Assembly: GCA_050115495.1 (NCBI GenBank)
Contig: JASFQK010000029.1
Coordinates: 1 to 64,000 of the forward strand
Length of the DNA: 64,000 nucleotides
Direction: 5' to 3'
Source of the DNA: Phycisphaerae bacterium
GTDB lineage: Bacteria; Planctomycetota; Phycisphaerae; UBA1845; Fen-1342
In this document: positions 330-8,968 of the stretch, one piece after another
Position numbering within the stretch: the stretch's first letter is position 1
How the letters are laid out: each line of letters opens with the position of its first letter
Notes under the pieces: generated by a model
Seen by the model: the letters and a program-made list of their open reading frames with translations, nothing else
Database searches by the model: none
Told to the model about the DNA's origin: nothing
Position numbers and translations under genes: made by a program

Positions 330-433
330 GAAGGGAAATTGCTTCCTGATATAATCGTTGCACTTGTTTCGGACGTATAAGCAACCTGCCGAGACAACCG
401 AGTACTCGCAACGACATCTGAAACAGAGCATTG

Positions 434-478
434 GGAGAGGTGTCCGAGTGGCCTAAGGAGCCGGTCTTGAAAACCGGT
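434..478 (+). repeat. att junction: 5' half of tRNA-Ser(TGA), from acceptor strand to anticodon arm
   Basis: GGAGAGGTGTCCGAGTGGCCTAAGGAGCCGGTCTTGAAAACCGGT. The 19 bp GCCGGTCTTGAAAACCGGT (460-478) is identical to 8866-8884. No T-arm or 3' acceptor strand follows. Confidence 0.9.
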
Positions 479-669
479 CGGCAACGGACATAACGACCGC
501 AACACCCGACACTTACAGCGAAGCCGACGATTCTCTTGGCGCTCTGCTTGCGCGTTTTGAACGTGCGCAGCCGGACTTAGCTCACGTTGTCCGCGCTTGG
601 GGCACGTTGCCCGAACCGGTGCGCGCCGGAATCGTTGCGATGGTGCTGAGCACGGAAAGGCAGGTGTGA
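478..669 (+). other. Detached C-terminal 63 codons of the integrase (in frame with it across the att core)
   Basis: The frame through the core reads GLENR-SATDITTATPDTYSEADDSLGALLARFERAQPDLAHVVRAWGTLPEPVRAGIVAMVLSTERQV*. The integrase at 8886 ends in GLENR*. Confidence 0.75.
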
Positions 670-671
670 GC

Positions 672-1019
672 ATGCCCACACTCTCGTTCAACAGGCCCAC
701 CGTGTCACGAACGATCCGATTCGATGGAGGCGTTTACACGCCGCCGCGACAACGGGGCCGGAGCATCCGGCAGACGGTTCGGGAGTGGGCGGCGGTGGGG
801 TCGGACCCGTCCTTTGAGGGTACCGCCGCGCTCGCCGTCCAGGGGGCCCCGGCTTGGTTGAGTGTGCCTGTGGCGGTTCAAGACAGCGTAGCTTTCTCCA
901 TCGACTTCGACGCCAGCGCGCTTGCCCCGGGCACGTACTCCGCGGTCGTCAAGGCCACGAAGGACGGCTTCGACTCGGCCGCGCTCGCCGTCGTGTTGGT
1001 CGTCCTGCCGATGCACTGA
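672..1019 (+). CDS. Hypothetical protein with an Ig/BACON-like beta-rich C-terminus
   Basis: ATG at 672 within ORF 597..1019. The motif PAWLSV...DASALAPGTYSAVV is typical of BACON-like domains. Confidence 0.55.
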   Translation: MPTLSFNRPTVSRTIRFDGGVYTPPRQRGRSIRQTVREWAAVGSDPSFEGTAALAVQGAPAWLSVPVAVQDSVAFSIDFDASALAPGTYSAVVKATKDGFDSAALAVVLVVLPMH

Positions 1020-1034
1020 CGCGAGGGAGGTATC

Positions 1035-1394
1035 GTGGCCAAGCGACCGTTTCCAAACGGACAAACGGCCGGTCGGGATCGGGCAGGCCGATTCGCGCCC
1101 GGCAATCGTGCCGCGCTGGGGCATGGCGGCGGGCTCGCCGGACAGGTTCAGAAGCTCCGGGCCGAGCTTGTCAAAGCCGTGCAGCCGGCGGACATCCGGG
1201 CGATTGCCAAGCGGCTCCTGCGGGACGCCCGGGCTGGCGACGCCAGCGCAATCAAAACGTTGCTCGCCTACGTCTTGGGGCCGCCGGTCCCATCGGACAT
1301 CCTTGAGCGGCTTGAACGCCTCGAAAGTCTAGCAACGGCTCTTCGGGAAGGTGCAGCATGTGGCGAGGTCGGGCGTCTCGACTCGAACGGTTGA
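1035..1394 (+). CDS. DUF5681-like / terminase-small-subunit-like protein
   Basis: GRDRAGRFAPGN motif followed by a helical A..GD..A..LL.Y..G.P segment. GGGAG RBS upstream. Confidence 0.55.
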   Translation: MAKRPFPNGQTAGRDRAGRFAPGNRAALGHGGGLAGQVQKLRAELVKAVQPADIRAIAKRLLRDARAGDASAIKTLLAYVLGPPVPSDILERLERLESLATALREGAACGEVGRLDSNG

Positions 1395-1657
1395 TCGGCG
1401 CGGCCGCTCGTCGGCGGCAGCGGGCAGCGGACCTGCGGCGCGATGCAGCCGCGCAGGTCGCGGCAATGGCCAAGGCCACCGTCGGCGCCGGCGGCCCGTT
1501 CGAGACGTGCTCGGCTGAGGAATGGACAGATGCATTCTCCGGCTCGGCCGGCCCACGGTCGGTCGCCGACGGCATGGAACGACTTGAGGTACTCGTGAAA
1601 GGCAAGTGCAGGACGACGCCGCGTTCGCGGCGCAGCAAGAAAGGACGTGTGCTATGA
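1358..1657 (+). CDS. Hypothetical protein
   Basis: Overlaps its neighbours in an operon-like run. Confidence 0.4.
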   Translation: MWRGRASRLERLIGAAARRRQRAADLRRDAAAQVAAMAKATVGAGGPFETCSAEEWTDAFSGSAGPRSVADGMERLEVLVKGKCRTTPRSRRSKKGRVL

Positions 1658-1959
1658 GTTCTGGTGAGTTCATGTTGGTCGGTGTGGACGAGCGCGGCGC
1701 GCCCATCTTCTCGGAGGTCGGCGGCGACACAGATCGGCTCGTGCGCGTGGGCGACGTCGTTTCGCTGTCACGTCGAAGACGCGAAACCAACCTCGCCACC
1801 ACGCAGAGCGCGGCAAGGATCGAGCTACAACGTCTCGGCGACCGCCTCTTTGGCGGCGACGAAGACGAGTCGGTGCCGGCCACGGTGCGAGACGCCAAGC
1901 GACGGGCGAAAACGTACGCGGCGCAGCAAGACGCCGCGCGGAGGGCACGCAATGGCTAG
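1654..1959 (+). CDS. Hypothetical protein
   Basis: ATGA overlap with the upstream ORF. Confidence 0.5.
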   Translation: MSSGEFMLVGVDERGAPIFSEVGGDTDRLVRVGDVVSLSRRRRETNLATTQSAARIELQRLGDRLFGGDEDESVPATVRDAKRRAKTYAAQQDAARRARNG

Positions 1960-2647
1960 TGCATCCTCGAAGACCAGTGTAGCCTCGAAGACCAGTGGTG
2001 ACACGTCGCGCCTTGCCGCGCTCGAAAGGCGCCTTGCGGAGGCGGAGCGCAAGCTGGCGCTCGTGTGGGGAAGTTCGCTCGGCATCCAGCTCAGGATGAT
2101 GGAAGCGTCCGAGCGGACGCGGCTACAGGAAGCGGCTGCTGAGCGTGCGGCGGCGCAGCGGCGGGTAGACGCCGCGGACGCCCGGGCCGAAGTGTTCGCG
2201 CGGTTCGTCGGCGAACGCGTGGCCATTCACCACAGCCTGCACGTTTCCGCCGAACGCCTGCGGCGCGATTTCTCGTTGTGGTGCGAGCAGAATCGGGTTG
2301 GCCAGCTACACCGAATCCTCACCGACGACGAACTTGAGGAGTGTGTCACACGCGCGCTGCCGGCGGCGGAACCGGCCTCAGTGCATCCGGAGGGCTATCT
2401 CGGCCGGCCCATTCCGCTCGTTCCCGGATTCGCGGGTGTCGGATGCTGCCCGCCGGGCCGGACGCCGGCCGAGGTTGCCAGCCGCTTGGACCGACGCGCC
2501 GCCGCCGACGAGACGGAACGCCGGCTGCGTCGCGAGGAACTTGAGGCCGAGGCGGAAGTGCAACGCAGCATCATCGCCGCGAAGACCGCGCGCGACAGGG
2601 CGGCGGAACTTGCGGTGCAAGCCGCTGAAGGACGCGTGCGACGATGA
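1952..2647 (+). CDS. Hypothetical coiled-coil protein
   Basis: ATG 1952 within ORF 1664..2647, coupled to both neighbours. Confidence 0.55.
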   Translation: MASASSKTSVASKTSGDTSRLAALERRLAEAERKLALVWGSSLGIQLRMMEASERTRLQEAAAERAAAQRRVDAADARAEVFARFVGERVAIHHSLHVSAERLRRDFSLWCEQNRVGQLHRILTDDELEECVTRALPAAEPASVHPEGYLGRPIPLVPGFAGVGCCPPGRTPAEVASRLDRRAAADETERRLRREELEAEAEVQRSIIAAKTARDRAAELAVQAAEGRVRR

Positions 2648-3246
2648 TCGAAGGGCTTCCACGGCTCTGTAGCAACGGGCTCCCGCGGCTATGCAAGAAC
2701 GGGCTGCCGAAGCTGTGCGCTGGATGCGCTTTGTGCACAGAGCCGACGCCTGCCTCGTACGCTGTCGTGATGAGCGGTCTTACGATGTGCGGGTGCCTGC
2801 CAAAGTCGCCATCGTCGTATCAGGCAGACGTAATATCCGGTGCCATCAACGGTTCATGGCTGCTCGCGAGAGCGTCTATACCTCCGAACATCCACGAGTT
2901 TGGCGTTGCTGGTTGCCGCTGGTCTCTTGAAACCGACACGATTATCAGGAGACGGCGATGGACCGGAACGTCATGCAGCGGCACGTTGACCGATACACGG
3001 ACAGGGGCAATGCGAATATGCTTCGGGTTCGGTGACGTCGGCGGTGGAGTAATCGGGGTTGTCTTCCACGCGTACGTTCAGGACCCTGTTGATCCTGACG
3101 AGCGATGGGACCTGTTCTACAACCGCGACAGCATCTCAGGCCCGTGTCAAGCGGAGTATGGGCCCTATAGCAATCAACTCGGATCATGTTCGTATGACAC
3201 CAGAACGTACGCGCAAAATGGCAGTGTGACACTTGAGGCAGCGTAA
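2644..3246 (+). CDS. Cys-rich hypothetical protein with N-terminal GLP(R/K)LC repeats
   Basis: 200 aa ORF with an ATGA overlap. Confidence 0.6.
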   Translation: MIEGLPRLCSNGLPRLCKNGLPKLCAGCALCTEPTPASYAVVMSGLTMCGCLPKSPSSYQADVISGAINGSWLLARASIPPNIHEFGVAGCRWSLETDTIIRRRRWTGTSCSGTLTDTRTGAMRICFGFGDVGGGVIGVVFHAYVQDPVDPDERWDLFYNRDSISGPCQAEYGPYSNQLGSCSYDTRTYAQNGSVTLEAA

Positions 3247-3557
3247 TGGCCAAGTCATTCGCAACGTCTGGACATTGCATGTCTCGGGCGCATTGCCGGA
3301 TGTGCCGGACGCAACCCGAGCTTCTACGGGGCTTCGACGTGCCCGAGGCTTGCCCATTCGACGTGACGGTTGACGATCTCCCGGCGAAACCCGGCGTTGG
3401 CATCTGCCCGAAAACCGGCGCCCAGTGCGACGAGTGGTCCGGCTCGCTGTGCGAGGCGAAGTTCCCGGCAGGCTGCTGCCTGAGCACCGCCGCCAGGTGG
3501 CTGGCCGATCCTCAAGCCGAGTGTCCCCTCGACAACGCGGTAACAACGGGCCGCTGA
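3246..3557 (+). CDS. Small Cys-rich hypothetical protein
   Basis: 103 aa with a TAATG overlap and many Cys (CxxC, CC). Confidence 0.6.
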   Translation: MAKSFATSGHCMSRAHCRMCRTQPELLRGFDVPEACPFDVTVDDLPAKPGVGICPKTGAQCDEWSGSLCEAKFPAGCCLSTAARWLADPQAECPLDNAVTTGR

Positions 3558-4056
3558 ATGTTCTCTGTTGCTTGGGCGTTCGGTTCGCAGTCCGACCGAC
3601 GCCCGCCCCGCCCCGCCTGAGCAACGGGGCGGGGTCCTCTTTCGCCGCGGCCGGCGTGTTCCTATGTCTGCTGGTCTGGATTCCGGGCGTTCCGCTCCCC
3701 ATCATCATCCCGTGGCACTGCTCCCCGAACCCCGGTCCAGCAAGTCCAACGTGACGTCCCGGTGCTCCCCGGGGCGGGGTCTTTTTTTGGTTTGCGCCAA
3801 GTGACGCGCTCAGAACAGGCCCCCGCTTTCGCCAACTGCTGCATCGTCCGCAACTTACGCGAACGGCCCACCGGTTTCGATGACCGGTCGTCGCACCGGA
3901 TTGATCGAATTGCTGAACTGCCCTTGATACTTGCCGGCCGCGTGCAAGCATAGTCCGTAGCGGGACGGTGGCTGATCCCCACCGATCCGGGGGTGCATTG
4001 CGGTGACACCTGCCCGCGTGCGCCCCCGGATACTACCCCCCGCGAGCAGGTGAACC

Positions 4057-4506
4057 ATGCCGACTCCCGCCCCGAACGCTGGTCCCTGGCCCGACGACGC
4101 TCTGCCCTGTGCACGACCTGAAGCGATTGAGCGCCTCAGGACCGGCGAATGGCTCGTTTCTGTCGACGGACGGCACTTCGGCCGCTGGTCGGAACTGACG
4201 GCCGACGAGCAGCGATGGATTCTCTGCTGCCGGCCATTCCGATGGTTCGCACGACCGGTCGCCGCTTCAGATGGTGAGGGCGGCAGGCCGGCGGCCCCCG
4301 TGGGCGTTTCCTGCGACATCGACACGGCGGCTCTCACCGCCATGCGCCACGTTGTGCTGGCCAACCCGTCCGCGAAACCCGACGCGCTGATAAAGGCGGC
4401 GGGCATGCGGCGGACGAAGGGGCGGGCGGTGCTCCGCGCGCTTGAGAGATTGGGCGAGTACGCGGGTTTTGCGCGTTCCAGGCCAGAACGCTACCGGAAG
4501 CCGTAG
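4057..4506 (+). CDS. Hypothetical protein, possible C-terminal HTH
   Basis: 149 aa with a GCAGGTG RBS-like sequence upstream. Confidence 0.5.
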   Translation: MPTPAPNAGPWPDDALPCARPEAIERLRTGEWLVSVDGRHFGRWSELTADEQRWILCCRPFRWFARPVAASDGEGGRPAAPVGVSCDIDTAALTAMRHVVLANPSAKPDALIKAAGMRRTKGRAVLRALERLGEYAGFARSRPERYRKP

Positions 4507-4572
4507 CGTTCCCAGCGTTCCGGGAACCATGGAACGTTCGCACTTTGCCCGAAGCGCGGCATATCTTTGGGC

Positions 4573-4824
4573 ATGACAACTGCAACGACGCCTATCAGCG
4601 TGCAGCCGCTCGCGGTTTCGGCAAAAGACGCCGCGATGCTGCTGGGGATCAGCAAGGCCCAGGTCTGGAAGCTGCACGCCCAGGGCAAACTCCCCCTGCC
4701 CATCCGGCTCGGCACAAAGGCCCCGCGGTGGCTCGTCGCCGAGCTCCGCGCGTGGTCCGAGGCCGGCTGTCCGGATCGGCAGGTTTGGGAGCGCGCCAAA
4801 ACAGCCACGCGGCGAGGGTGCTGA
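4573..4824 (+). CDS. AlpA/excisionase-like HTH protein
   Basis: LAVSAKDAAMLLGISKAQVWKLHAQGKLPLPIRLG...RW. Confidence 0.8.
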   Translation: MTTATTPISVQPLAVSAKDAAMLLGISKAQVWKLHAQGKLPLPIRLGTKAPRWLVAELRAWSEAGCPDRQVWERAKTATRRGC

Positions 4825-5648
4825 GGGTGACGTTCGCGCAGCTACCGCACGAGATCATGCGGCGGCCCGGACTCTCGGCCGGCGCCAAACTCGTTTGGGC
4901 GGCGGTGGGCGACCGGCAGGGTCGCAATGCCGATGCCTGGCCGAGCTTGTCCAGGCTGGCGAATGACACCGCGCTATGCCGGACGGCGGTCATTCGGGCG
5001 GTTCGGGAGCTTGAAGAGGCGAAGATGATCGTGGTGGAGCGGTCGGGCAACGGGAAGGTGAACCGGTATCGAATCGCTACCGGTCTGGAGTCGCTACCAG
5101 CAGCGAACCGCGACGGGGGTAGTCGCGAATCGCTACCGCGCGCTAGTAGCGATTCGCTACCCGAACCAACCCATAAGAACCAACCCATGAACCAACCCAA
5201 GGTGCCCGCGCCGCAAGCGGCGGGGATGCTCCCGGGGCTTCCGCCGGAGACCGACGAGCCGAAGAGGCGGAGCAAGGCCACCGGGGAGCGGGACACGCTG
5301 ACCGCGGCGGCGGTGGCAGTCTGGTGCGAGGTGTACCGCGAGGCCGCCGGCGGGCCGGCCGACCAGCCGGATGGGCGGGCCGTGGGCATGCTTCGACGGC
5401 TCGTGCACAAGACAACCGGCAACGACCTTGACGGGCTGCGGCGGCGGTTGCGTCTGGCAGCGGGCCTGGACGGCCGGGCCGCGCCGTTTCCGTTTGACCG
5501 ACCGGGCGGGCTGACCGTGGCGAACGTCGTGAAACATTGGGCCGCGCTGGGCGACGCGATCAGGAGGCCGGCGGTTGGCAGCAACACCCGGCCGCGCGCG
5601 ACCCCCAAGCTTGAGGAGGACATCCATGTCCCGATCGTCAACGGGTGA
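4818..5648 (+). CDS. Phage-type replication initiator with an N-terminal winged HTH
   Basis: LSAGAKLVW...AWPSLSRLANDTALCRTAVIRAVRELEE...NRYRI. It has internal DNA repeats and precedes a DnaC-like gene. Start uncertain. Confidence 0.75.
   Translation: MLRVTFAQLPHEIMRRPGLSAGAKLVWAAVGDRQGRNADAWPSLSRLANDTALCRTAVIRAVRELEEAKMIVVERSGNGKVNRYRIATGLESLPAANRDGGSRESLPRASSDSLPEPTHKNQPMNQPKVPAPQAAGMLPGLPPETDEPKRRSKATGERDTLTAAAVAVWCEVYREAAGGPADQPDGRAVGMLRRLVHKTTGNDLDGLRRRLRLAAGLDGRAAPFPFDRPGGLTVANVVKHWAALGDAIRRPAVGSNTRPRATPKLEEDIHVPIVNG
5074..5199 (+). repeat. Putative iteron/origin region inside the initiator gene
   Basis: TCGCTACC at 5074, 5091, 5130 and 5154, then three copies of GAACCAACCCA. Confidence 0.65.
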
Positions 5649-6405
5649 CAGCGCCCAACCCATCGGCGAGAACCTCGCCCCGTGGCTTCGGGACTTGCGA
5701 CCAGATGCGGCGAAGTGCGTCCGCTGTGGCGGCTCGTGGGCCAGCGAACTCGACAACGGCGTCTGCCCGGACTGCGCCGACGCGGACAAGCGGGCTGTCG
5801 CCTTCCGTGCCCGCTGGCGTGCCGTGTGCGGGGTGGCGAGGCGACACTCGAAGTACTTGACGTGGCAAGACCTGGACGGCCCCGACGAGTACGTGAAGGC
5901 GGTCGGGATCGTCCGCGCGTTCGTCGAGACCGGCGATTCCGTGTTGGCGATCATCGGCCGGCGCGGCTCCGGCAAGACGCAAGTGGCATCGACGGCGACC
6001 TGGCAGACAATCGAGGCCGGGCGGTCCGGGCGTATCGTGACGGCAAGCGAACTCGCCAGCGACCTGAAACGTCGGTTCGGCGCCGACAGTGACGCGGACG
6101 GCTCTTGGCTACGTGCATGGACGGTGCCGCATCTGCTCTGCGTTGACGAAATCGCCGAGCTGGTCGCCGGTGACGTCGTGCGTGCTGCGGTGACATCGCT
6201 TTTGGACAGCCGCTATCGCATGTGCAAACCAACGCTGCTCGCCGGCAACTTGGAGCCGGGGCATTTCATCTCGGTTGTCGGGGCGAGCGTCGCGGACCGT
6301 TGCCGCGAGGGGGGCGGGATCGTGCTGTGCAACTGGCCGTCGTTCCGGGGCGGGAACGGAGGCGCTGAGCGCCAAGCGGTGCGCCAAGCACAGGCGCCGG
6401 AGTGA
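5626..6405 (+). CDS. DnaC/IstB-like AAA+ ATPase (helicase loader)
   Basis: Walker A GRRGSGKT, Walker B LLCVDEI, LLDSRY...PTLLAGN, N-terminal CxxC...CxxC. Confidence 0.85.
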   Translation: MSRSSTGDSAQPIGENLAPWLRDLRPDAAKCVRCGGSWASELDNGVCPDCADADKRAVAFRARWRAVCGVARRHSKYLTWQDLDGPDEYVKAVGIVRAFVETGDSVLAIIGRRGSGKTQVASTATWQTIEAGRSGRIVTASELASDLKRRFGADSDADGSWLRAWTVPHLLCVDEIAELVAGDVVRAAVTSLLDSRYRMCKPTLLAGNLEPGHFISVVGASVADRCREGGGIVLCNWPSFRGGNGGAERQAVRQAQAPE

Positions 6406-6507
6406 ACGAAGTGACGCTGGCAACGCGAGTTACATTCGGCCTGCACCGGTTTGTACAACCGGTCGCGCCTTGGCAGCTCGCCGTAGTGAGAATTCTGGAG
6501 TTGCTTG

Positions 6508-6535
6508 TTGACAACCGCTCGGGACGAGGTACACT
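6508..6535 (+). promoter_or_regulatory. Sigma70-type promoter for a probably leaderless XRE gene
   Basis: TTGACA-16 nt-TACACT, with the ATG 7 nt downstream. Confidence 0.6.
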
Positions 6536-6542
6536 GCTCCGC

Positions 6543-6749
6543 ATGGACAACATCAGTGTGGCTCTGAAAATGGCGATTCTACGGGACGGCCGCACACAGC
6601 CCGCGATTGCGGACGCGGCGGGCATCGACAAGGGCCAGTTGTCGCGCTTCATGCGTGACCAACGCACGTTGACGCTCAGCACCGCAGACGCACTCTGCCG
6701 CGGGCTGGGCGTCAAGTGCCGACTAACAAAGCCGCGGAAGGCGAGGTAG
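6543..6749 (+). CDS. XRE-family HTH regulator
   Basis: TQPAIADAAGIDKGQLSRFMRDQRTLTLSTADALC. Confidence 0.8.
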   Translation: MDNISVALKMAILRDGRTQPAIADAAGIDKGQLSRFMRDQRTLTLSTADALCRGLGVKCRLTKPRKAR

Positions 6750-6752
6750 GTC

Positions 6753-7352
6753 GTGCCGGAACGGTCCCCACGAAACGCAAGTGTTCACGAAGCCGGGCAT
6801 ACCGTCGCGTACTGGTTGCTCGGGCACGGCCAGTACATCCGCGAAATCGACGTGCGGGGCGATGTGAACTGCGTGGGTGCCACCCACTACGAAGGCCCTG
6901 ATCTTGCAGCTTGGACGCGAGATTTGGGACCGCGCGTTGCCGCAACGTGGTACGCCACCGTCGGGCTCGCGGGCCGATGTGCAACAGGCGTTGAACAGGG
7001 CCAAGAGCACGACTGGTTCCAGCAACTCCGCGACGAATACAACAGGTCGCCCAAACACAACGCCGCGCACGACGTCACGCTCGTCGTTGATGGCATCCGC
7101 AAAACCCTGGGGAAACACGCTTCGCCCTGGCAATTCATCGGCGTGCGGGCGCGATGGATCGCTGAACTTCTCGGTGAACCGCGCGTCTGGAGAGCGGTCA
7201 ATGCCTTGGCAGACCGACTGTCGCGGGAACAACGGTTGAGCGGTCGTGATGCGTGCGAAGTGATAGTCGGGGCGTGGGGCCAGCCGGACGGTTGGCCGAT
7301 TCTCCAGTTGGGCCTCAAGTGGGGCGAGCGGTTCGCACCCAAAGGACGGTGA
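6753..7352 (+). CDS. HExxH metallopeptidase-like protein (M41/FtsH-like motif)
   Basis: N-terminal VHEAGH, LAG motif, and W.AV.ALA..L near the C-terminus. Confidence 0.55.
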   Translation: MPERSPRNASVHEAGHTVAYWLLGHGQYIREIDVRGDVNCVGATHYEGPDLAAWTRDLGPRVAATWYATVGLAGRCATGVEQGQEHDWFQQLRDEYNRSPKHNAAHDVTLVVDGIRKTLGKHASPWQFIGVRARWIAELLGEPRVWRAVNALADRLSREQRLSGRDACEVIVGAWGQPDGWPILQLGLKWGERFAPKGR

Positions 7353-7356
7353 AGCA

Positions 7357-8886
7357 ATGGCGAAGCACAAACGCGAACGACAGGGCTTCCGCCTTTTCAG
7401 ACCAACGTACAAGGACCACGCCGGCAACCGGCACGAAACCGCGCACTGGTACGTTGAATTTCGCGACCATTTGGCGACGGTCCGGCGGTTGCCCGCATTC
7501 GCCAGCAAGAATGCCAGCGCGGAGCTGGGCCGGAACCTCGTGGCGCTCGTGTCCTACCACAAGGCCACCGGCGGTCAGGTTGACCCAGCGCTAACGGACT
7601 GGCTCGGGGGATTGCCCCAACGGACGCGGGACAAGCTCACCGAATACGGATTGCTCCCCGCCGAGCGTTCCGGCGCAGCGAAATTGCTCGCCGAGCACGT
7701 GCGAGACTGGCAGGCGGCGTTGACAGCGAAGGGCAACACGCCCGATTACGTGACGCTCAAGGCGTCGCGCGTGCTGAGGGTCTTCGACGGCGCGAAGGCG
7801 CGGCGCTACGGCGACATCCGCGGCAGTTGCGTTGCATCGTACCTCAACGACCTGCGAGCCGATCGGAAGGACGCTGACGGCACTGTGACCCGGGGCATTA
7901 GTGCGCAAACGTTCAACTTCTACCTGGGGGCAACGAAGCAATTCTGTCGGTGGATGCTCAAAGAGCGTCGCGCGGCGGAGAATCCGGTTGCTCACCTGGA
8001 CGCGCTCAACGTCAGGACCGACCGTCGGCACGACCGCCGCGCCCTTTCGGTGGATGAACTGAAAGCGCTACTTGACACGACACGTGAAGGCCCCGACCGT
8101 GAAGGCATGACCGGCAAGGAGCGCTACTGGTTGTATCGCGTCGCAGTGGAAACGGGACTGCGAGCAAACGAACTTCGCACCCTCACACGGGGAGCATTCG
8201 CACTCGGCGGCGACCGGCCGACGGTGACGGTGGCCGCGGCGTACAGCAAGCACCGTCGCGAAGACACGCTACCTCTTCGGCGTGCGACGGCCGCGGCGCT
8301 GGCAGACTTCCTCAACGGGCGTGCCGGGTCGGCTCAGGTGTTCGCGCTGACGCCGAGCCGCCACCACGCGGCGAAGATGTTCAAGGCGGACTTGGCCGCC
8401 GCCGGCATCGAATACCGCGACGACGCGGACCGCGTGGCCGACTTCCACAGCCTACGACATACCTTCATAACAAACCTCGCCAATGGCGGAGTTCACCCCA
8501 GGAAGGCGCAGGCGCTCGCGCGGCATTGCACGATCACGCTGACGATGGACCGCTACTCGCACGTCGTGCATGATGACCTGATGGGCGCACTCGACGCTCT
8601 GCCGGACTTGTCCGAGCCGACTCCCGAGCGCGCGCGTGCGACCGGAACGTACGACGCGACCGCAAGCCCTGGACCCCGAGCAGATGCCGATTCTGTCTTG
8701 GCGCTGCGCTTGGCGCAAAATGGACGGCGCGGGTCAATTCCGGTAGACTCGTGTGGACGCAAGTCGGGATCGCGCGACGATTCGCAAGTCGCGACGGATT
8801 CACGATTTCCCGCCAAAAACACGGGAAAGACAGCACATGGGAGAGGTGGCCGAGTGGCTCAAGGCGCCGGTCTTGAAAACCGGTGA
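7357..8886 (+). CDS. int: Tyrosine recombinase/integrase
   Basis: ETGLRANEL (R), DFHSLRHTF (HxxR), LARH, TMDRYSH (Y). The 3' end overlaps tRNA-Ser. Confidence 0.95.
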   Translation: MAKHKRERQGFRLFRPTYKDHAGNRHETAHWYVEFRDHLATVRRLPAFASKNASAELGRNLVALVSYHKATGGQVDPALTDWLGGLPQRTRDKLTEYGLLPAERSGAAKLLAEHVRDWQAALTAKGNTPDYVTLKASRVLRVFDGAKARRYGDIRGSCVASYLNDLRADRKDADGTVTRGISAQTFNFYLGATKQFCRWMLKERRAAENPVAHLDALNVRTDRRHDRRALSVDELKALLDTTREGPDREGMTGKERYWLYRVAVETGLRANELRTLTRGAFALGGDRPTVTVAAAYSKHRREDTLPLRRATAAALADFLNGRAGSAQVFALTPSRHHAAKMFKADLAAAGIEYRDDADRVADFHSLRHTFITNLANGGVHPRKAQALARHCTITLTMDRYSHVVHDDLMGALDALPDLSEPTPERARATGTYDATASPGPRADADSVLALRLAQNGRRGSIPVDSCGRKSGSRDDSQVATDSRFPAKNTGKTAHGRGGRVAQGAGLENR

Positions 8887-8924
8887 TGGGCAACCATCCG
8901 CGGGTTCGAATCCCGCCCTCTCCG
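8840..8924 (+). tRNA. tRNA-Ser(TGA)
   Basis: GGAGAGG/CCTCTCC acceptor stem, CTTGAAA anticodon loop, long variable arm, GGTTCGAATCC. CCA not encoded. Confidence 0.95.
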
Positions 8925-8932
8925 TCTCGCAG

Positions 8933-8968
8933 GAGCCCCGGGCCGCATGGTCTGGGGCTCGTTTCGTT
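8933..8968. terminator. Hairpin between convergent tRNA-Ser and the downstream gene
   Basis: GAGCCCCGGGCC-GCAT-GGTCTGGGGCTC followed by GTTTCGTT. Confidence 0.55.

Follow-up and report, generated by a model that had tools for sequence, protein, structure and literature searches.

An integrase gene divided by its own attachment site in a planctomycete integrative element, with a conserved tail that excision would restore

An 8.4-kb integrative element occupies the anticodon stem-loop of tRNA-Ser(TGA) in a Phycisphaerae bacterium (assembly GCA_050115495.1), as read from positions 479-8884 of the analyzed window, which is the first 64,000 nucleotides of contig JASFQK010000029.1. It is likely that the attachment site attP lies inside the tyrosine integrase gene of this element, that integration detaches a conserved C-terminal tail, and that excision would restore it. 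Sequence comparison establishes the split, the frame across the att site, the conservation of the tail as a protein, and the generality of the design. On the same basis, integration parts the integrase, which stays catalytically complete, from a conserved domain, and the two can be encoded as a fusion only in the attP configuration. Sequence-level and comparative evidence supports the proposal, made in an initial annotation of this DNA, of a switch between two integrase isoforms according to integration state.

The split integrase gene and its counterparts

In the integrated state, the integrase open reading frame (ORF) runs into tRNA-Ser and stops at GLENR-TGA. Base T8884 is both the final base of the 19-nucleotide (nt) att core and the opening base of the stop codon; this part of the initial annotation was confirmed at every coordinate (Table 1). 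The core forms the end of a 47-nt direct repeat (432-478 and 8838-8884, 91% identity, exact over the last 19 nt) that is the 5′ half of the tRNA and is not a chance match. The last 15 integrase codons are the sense strand of the tRNA-Ser 5′ half, and the last ~65 amino acids (aa) of the 509-aa protein are encoded by the P arm and the element copy of that half. At the other end of the element, the frame from position 478 continues for 63 residues (SATDITT...PDLAHVVRAWGTLPEPVRAGIVAMVLSTERQV) to a TGA at 667-669. The circular form would encode 509 + 63 = 572 aa, in agreement with the annotated lengths. Because the two repeat copies differ at four positions left of the core and diverge completely beyond its right end, any crossover must lie in the 19 identical bases; this answers the initial concern that it might fall outside the core. 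The fused frame is identical wherever crossover falls within these 19 nt.

The integrase belongs to the tyrosine recombinase / phage integrase family, with a PF00589 match on residues 230-403 (Pfam, E 3.9e-19) and a match to the phrog_1 integrase (E 1.5e-30). In an alignment of 15 family members, K298, H364, R367, H390, and Y400 are invariant and R269 is nearly so. The PF00589 domain and all catalytic residues are upstream of the att site, with the Y400 codon ~330 nt before the core, and the catalytic motifs are kept in both forms, as initially proposed.

Twenty other Planctomycetota genomes with tail matches were probed with the window integrase. Fifteen encode a family integrase downstream of the tail, on the same strand and about 5-21 kb away. 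In 13 of these candidate pairs, both open frames contain the same tRNA-derived repeat, an exact match of 18-62 nt (for genome G027, an 18-aa peptide common to both sides served as the criterion), and the two frames match in each of the 13. When the two pairs of the window's own genome (G000; C numbers denote contigs) are included, every pair sharing an att repeat is in frame (15/15, chance expectation 1/3), and the initial expectation that homologous tails continue the integrase frame held. G041/G068 and G322/G247 are related pairs, and about 13 of the 15 are independent. At least eight tRNA species are targeted by these pairs, and either orientation occurs; the targets are Ser(TGA) (both orientations), Ser(GGA), Glu(TTC), Leu(TAA), Leu(CAA), Ala(TGC), Asn(GTT), and Met. 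Spacing from att to att is 4.9-14.2 kb, and ~21 kb in G027.

The second split pair of the own genome consists of an integrase at C28 (13012..14433), which runs antisense through tRNA-Glu(TTC) and ends ...RPQRDSNSCRRLEKPVS at its stop codon, and a 46-nt exact repeat on C75, which reads ...RPQRDSNSCRRLEKP and continues in the same frame into a motif-bearing tail, ...DLRRVVTAWPALPELIRRAVMALV. Contiguous genes were also found. A paralogue on C15 (124203-126332, open frame of 710 aa) encodes catalytic domain, linker, and tail in one frame, and its tail matches the window tail with 56% identity (E 1.9e-9). Metagenome protein P0129 is a contiguous integrase, linker, and tail with a tRNA-like peptide in the linker. 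The linker of the C15 integrase has no tRNA-like match by Rfam scan and no tRNA fragment. Tandem repeats of CTTGTACCA are common to the C15 gene and the side of C41 that bears the tRNA-Gly fragment (C41:5553-5981), and a 28-nt match (C15:115284-115311) links the C15 gene to the vicinity of the other C15 integrase, beside tRNA-Gly.

The tail domain and the attP linker

The 63-codon tail contains a conserved domain of ~45 aa with the motif DPxLAxVVxAWPxLPxxxRxGIxAMVxA. AlphaFold2 predicted three helices for a 51-aa segment (44-row alignment) with a mean predicted local distance difference test score of 89.9, and tail proteins terminate 3-20 residues past the last helix. The tail has no Pfam or NCBIfam match, and no recurrent family was found among 44 members. 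Foldseek of the tail model against the PDB gave a best E of 3.6 and no convincing fold, and VIA-align against 48,161 chains gave no fold assignment (best Z 4.5, root-mean-square deviation 8.0). Within the 44-sequence alignment, identical tail residues have different codons in 7,434 of 11,650 comparisons (64%), and the invariant leucine L35 is encoded by all six leucine codons. A tryptophan and a further leucine of the motif are nearly invariant. Nucleotide identity is 0.45, 0.53, and 0.34 at the first, second, and third codon positions. Given the codon variation, the low third-position identity, and the confident fold, the tail is read as a translated C-terminal domain that is conserved as protein rather than as DNA. 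The objection raised at the outset, that the tail might lack conservation at the protein level, does not apply.

About 150 variable residues separate the catalytic domain from the tail. Judged by its composition of P-arm repeats, tRNA-derived core, and P′-arm repeats, this linker is attP itself. Cognate direct repeats are found at about -150 (integrase side) and +50 (tail side) of the tRNA repeat in 11 of 14 pairs, which is above the 95th percentile of 178 non-cognate comparisons. They are element-specific, often tandem 8-10-mers, and in some elements their frames differ between the two sides; for these reasons they are candidate DNA signals resembling arm-type sites. The island holds six of the nine arm-repeat copies of the window. 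A third tandem pair of CTTGGCGC, also with 12-nt spacing, is on the minus strand at 6369-6388, just before the Cro/CI-like gene, and may also be bound by the predicted arm-binding domain of the integrase. A 25-nt tandem direct repeat (8758-8807, 72% identical) is inside the integrase ORF between the P-arm repeats and the tRNA copy and could be a further protein-binding site of attP.

Helix 1 of the tail overlaps the P′ arm repeats, and this overlap, together with the change of repeat frame between the two sides in some elements, is what would be seen if conservation acted on arm-type binding sites of attP and the open frame were a by-product with no protein function. Helices 2 and 3, however, show free synonymous change, third codon positions are the least conserved, the repeats vary between elements that have the peptide motif in common, and the fold is predicted with confidence. 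Conservation at the DNA level is barely credible as an explanation of the tail.

Tails are abundant. When 401 genomes sampled from the phylum were searched with a profile built from four tails, 84 matched at E ≤ 1e-3, a figure inflated by false positives, and 39 at E ≤ 1e-6 (counted from the same table). Six weak matches in ~470-aa frames were fetched. Four proved to be C-termini of dihydrolipoamide dehydrogenases and were discarded as false positives; a fifth is an ordinary orphan tail whose long frame is spurious, and the sixth is a 481-aa ORF that ends in the motif and is, by eye, primase-polymerase (prim-pol)-like. A profile search of 1.84 billion cluster representatives returned 13,894 proteins at E ≤ 1e-3 and 1,805 at E ≤ 1e-10. 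Among the best 150 representatives, 149 are 42-223 aa in length with the tail at the C-end, and the N-termini of several of 15 inspected are translated tRNA sequence. Scanning of metagenomes with a closer-knit alignment identified 80 loci with tails, and the same scan with the window's own tail as query gave no match. A tRNA or tRNA fragment is found ≤330 nt upstream in 39 of the 51 metagenome tails with enough upstream DNA. Look-alikes of the tail in the ESM Atlas are planctomycete clusters. The orphan tails near planctomycete tRNAs that the initial annotation had mentioned are real and abundant in the 401-genome, cluster, and metagenome searches. The detached state is the one sampled in public data, and the circular form is rare there.

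No match to the integrase or the tail was found by tblastn among 50,697 phage records. The sole viral-contig locus from the tail query (L061) was rejected: it has no tRNA, and the match is a coincidental one in a frame antisense to phage genes. Five predicted proteins (P0002, P0003, P0004, P0016, and P0072) contain two to four consecutive tail motifs, which successive integrations at a single tRNA may have left behind as a stack.

The window tail has no in-frame ATG, GTG, or TTG ahead of the conserved domain. In 9 of 15 pairs, among them the window pair, the stretch from the att repeat to the domain has no such codon, and the eight candidate starts in the remaining six pairs all lack a Shine-Dalgarno-like motif. 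These data bear on whether the tail is an independent small gene beside attL (the left att site), translated alone when integrated, perhaps from the host tRNA promoter. Gene callers do predict thousands of short proteins ending in the motif, a stand-alone copy on C34 has its own start signals, and an extended -10-like motif is found upstream of attL. The in-frame match of all 15 pairs, the nine pairs with no start, the predicted N-termini that are translated tRNA sequence, and the contiguous fusions on C15 and in P0129 argue against an independent gene, which is very improbable.

Integration state and related systems

In the proposed mechanism, the gene of the circular element would read catalytic domain, attP linker, and three-helix tail. 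Integration would move the tail 8.4 kb to the other end of the element, with no start codon, and would leave a catalytically complete 509-aa form whose last residues are encoded by the tRNA. The full gene would be re-formed on excision, in which the AlpA-like protein presumably takes part. Because the tail is under purifying selection yet start-less when detached, selection on it would have to act in the excised state. There it would be needed most likely for efficient or specific attP x attB integration, and the tail-less form may be a less active, lysogeny-stabilizing isoform, with excision needing the AlpA-like protein. Structure prediction of the tail in complex with integrase residues 1-432 scored 0.00 and gave no verdict either way.

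Several observations weigh against a detachable integrase tail. A 138-aa ORF that has a ribosome-binding-site-like GAGGAGG and a GTG of its own carries the motif at its N-end (G000:C34:24998-25411; 2.1 kb from tRNA-Arg), and the 481-aa ORF L066 (G221:C40), which is prim-pol-like by eye, carries it at its C-end. Because the motif also occurs outside integrases, the tail may be a portable, perhaps interaction, module whose role is not specific to recombination. Candidate pair G351 has no shared repeat. Integrase, tRNA, and tail are side by side but out of frame in G228 (L044, C104), and a second tail directly follows the integrase-side att in a different frame at L047 (G033:C5); at both loci, a pair of elements appears to have stacked at a single tRNA, each reading the shared site in a different frame. 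Of the best 150 cluster representatives, only one is at least 300 aa (a contiguous 380-aa integrase fragment), and none of the 24 metagenome tails with at least 1.4 kb of upstream DNA forms a continuous gene with an integrase. Assembled contigs of two wetland runs showed no excised or empty-site form of the island and bridge both of its junctions at flank-equal depth; such contigs cannot show rare circles and are silent on excision. No synteny-based empty site was found in 30 relatives by blastn and tblastx, where only the tRNA matched and the flanks are unconserved. Joints of 461 to 8898/8899, which contain 32-35 other letters, were rejected as belonging to other tRNA-Ser genes.

The contig data also fit a fixed relic, in which the split records a past integration, the copy no longer excises, and no isoform switch operates today. 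An attP/attB joint is absent from the contigs of both runs, island depth equals flank depth, and the contiguous integrase-tail form is rare in public data. A relic is nonetheless unlikely: the island ORFs are all open, the integrase has every catalytic residue, the core is exact, the tail frame is intact, and rare circles are invisible in contigs.

An integrase gene that contains attP has precedents in Mx8 and, more drastically, in SSV. What is new in detail is the conserved domain that can be detached, the use of attP as a linker, and the size of the family. The statement in the initial annotation that Mx8 and SSV both have attP inside the integrase gene agrees with published descriptions (PMC4383910, PMC6070905, PMC7253208). 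As described in PMC6070905, attP of Mx8 is inside the 3′ part of the int gene, the target is a tRNA, and integration swaps the 3′ end of the gene without inactivation; PMC4383910 describes the Mx8 and SSV integrases as extending across attP. The Mx8 Int sequence has a tRNA-antisense-like peptide (..TGLEP..) followed by ~108 residues. Both Mx8 Int and the window integrase are tyrosine integrases with catalytic domain, tRNA-derived core, and tail in that order. As in Mx8, the att core here follows the catalytic tyrosine within the integrase coding sequence, and the frame continues past the core at the element's other end, in the window and in 15/15 pairs. Homology to Mx8 Int was not detectable (blastp of the window integrase, E 0.79; tail profile, 1.0 bit). 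Mx8 is a 49.5-kb phage, whereas the elements here are 5-21-kb islands with no virion genes in another host phylum, and one conserved tail domain is common to elements that use many tRNAs in both orientations. The proposed weaker tail-less form may be likened to Mx8 IntX, which Magrini et al. 1999 reportedly found to have lower activity and to be linked to tandem prophages.

In SSV-type elements, as described in PMC7253208, attP is in the integrase ORF, att is translated, and integration partitions the gene to the element ends; the split yields two inactive pseudogenes, and that source states that the type is restricted to archaea. The window element is alike in having attP within the integrase ORF, a translated att, and gene parts at both ends. 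It differs in that its integrase gene is cut beyond the catalytic tyrosine and in having an excisionase-like gene. The integrated form retains the whole PF00589 domain and all catalytic residues, unlike the two inactive parts of the "suicidal" SSV type.

Mycobacteriophage BPs and its relatives, which have integration-dependent immunity, also have attP in a coding gene, and integration alters the C-terminus of a regulatory protein, sensing the integrated state. The altered C-terminus is shared with the elements described here, but the split gene of BPs is the repressor and here it is the integrase. The cognate repeats at about -150 and +50 of the core resemble the P and P′ arm sites of lambda-type heterobivalent integrases; in lambda, attP is outside int rather than inside it. 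Literature searches on planctomycete integrase/tRNA islands and on attP within an integrase gene returned no title or abstract start on the planctomycete family.

The island at tRNA-Ser and wider implications

All genes of the island are on the plus strand, and Pfam and PHROG scans of its ORFs detected no virion genes. From its gene content (Table 1), the element is probably self-replicating and looks like a small integrative replicon.

Table 1. Coordinates of the att sites, genes, and other features of the element and its tRNA-Ser site
Feature	Position	Strand	Details
Extended -10-like motif TGATATAAT	347..355	+	Upstream of the displaced tRNA 5′ half; read from the sequence, not listed by consensus scan
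Left part of attL, displaced tRNA-Ser 5′ part, apparently the host's original	432..459	+	4 differences from 8838-8865
19-nt att core at attL	460..478	+	Exact copy of 8866-8884; anticodon stem-loop of tRNA-Ser
Detached integrase tail	478..669	+	63 codons and TGA 667-669; tail profile E 2.1e-26
Predicted three-helix tail domain	523..663	+	Helices 523-567, 571-606, 613-663
P′ arm direct repeats CTTGGCGC / CTTGCGCG (candidate)	535..554	+	12 nt apart; cognate to 8697-8716
Island ORFs without Pfam or PHROG match	672-1016, 1035-1391, 1606-1956 or 1664-2644, 2644-3243, 3246-3554, 4057-4503	+	
Terminator-like hairpin	3755-3780		Within the stretch of unmatched ORFs, 672..4503
AlpA-like excisionase/regulator	4567..4824	+	PF05930, E 2.3e-6; phrog_66 excisionase, E 2.6e-9
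Replication initiator (O-like/HTH_36)	4818..5648	+	In ORF 4545..5648, start codon uncertain; PF13730, E 8.7e-10; phrog_270, E 5.7e-13
DnaC/IstB-like helicase loader ATPase	5575..6405	+	phrog_50, E 2.9e-21; NF005931, E 3.2e-11
Cro/CI-type helix-turn-helix regulator	6402..6749	+	PF01381, E 2.3e-6
Tyrosine integrase, integrated form	7357..8886	+	509 aa, ending ...GAGLENR; TGA 8884-8886
P arm direct repeats, CTTGGCGC twice (candidate)	8697..8716	+	12 nt apart; ~150 nt before the tRNA copy
Element-borne tRNA-Ser 5′ part	8838..8865	+	Now the 5′ part of the working tRNA gene
Rebuilt tRNA-Ser(TGA)	8840..8924	+	ARAGORN; sole tRNA-Ser(TGA) found in the assembly
19-nt att core at attR (right att site)	8866..8884	+	Exact copy of 460-478
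Terminator-like hairpin native to tRNA-Ser	8933-8960		Downstream of the rebuilt tRNA-Ser

The tRNA-Ser gene and a directly oriented fragment of it (432-478) bracket this integrase-bearing island, as in the islands defined by Islander. Its geometry is of the 5′-fragment type, the rarer one in Islander Table 1 (159/3,919; PMC4383910). The 5′ half of the working tRNA comes from the element, which lies upstream of this tRNA. A compensatory D-stem pair distinguishes the 5′ halves at the two ends (T10/A26 in attL, G10/C26 in attR), and both variants occur among the tRNA-Ser(TGA) genes of relatives. The attL variant is the one carried by L054, the relative with the 3′ half closest to that of the window, and this T10/A26 pair fits attL holding the host's original tRNA 5′ half. 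The TGATATAAT motif may be the original tRNA-Ser promoter, now reading into the island. No consensus promoter was found before the rebuilt tRNA-Ser (8700-8840) by consensus scan, and this tRNA may depend on transcription through the integrase gene.

In this sense-oriented member of the family, the integrated int message spans a complete tRNA-Ser(UGA) at its 3′ end, and both the 5′ half of this tRNA and the region upstream of it come from the element. It is conceivable, although doubtful, that RNase P cuts this message at 8839/8840, ~15 codons before the int stop, giving a non-stop mRNA whose product, the prophage-form integrase, would be tagged by transfer-messenger RNA and destroyed. After excision the message would be whole, because the tRNA copy is then incomplete, and full integrase with its tail would accumulate. 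If this were true, tRNA processing would be part of the integration-state switch, and host tRNA supply would depend on element transcription.

Other tRNA-derived sequences were seen in G000. Displaced pieces, 24-45 nt long, of at least eight more tRNA genes (Lys, Arg(TCT), Val(CAC), Gly(CCC), Gly(GCC), Thr(TGT), Met, and Gly(TCC)) lie elsewhere in the assembly, and the genome therefore holds many tRNA-borne islands. Eleven dispersed tRNA-Val(AAC)-like copies (57-73 nt, 88-94% identical), not called as tRNA by ARAGORN, are on C16, C30, C12 (two), C28 (two), C29:73571-73639 (outside the window), C17, C20 (two), and C3. They may be a tRNA-derived repeat family.

With a detachable tail, the single textbook oddity of Mx8 becomes a large natural family, in which one detachable domain is found across many tRNA genes. 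Thousands of start-less "hypothetical proteins" by planctomycete tRNA genes would be explained as integrase tails, and the detached tails would serve as precise markers of island ends. The attP site, including its arm repeats, would be read through as the linker of the enzyme that acts on it. The many sequence-diverse isoform pairs provide opportunities to probe how a C-terminal swap affects the direction and stability of recombination.

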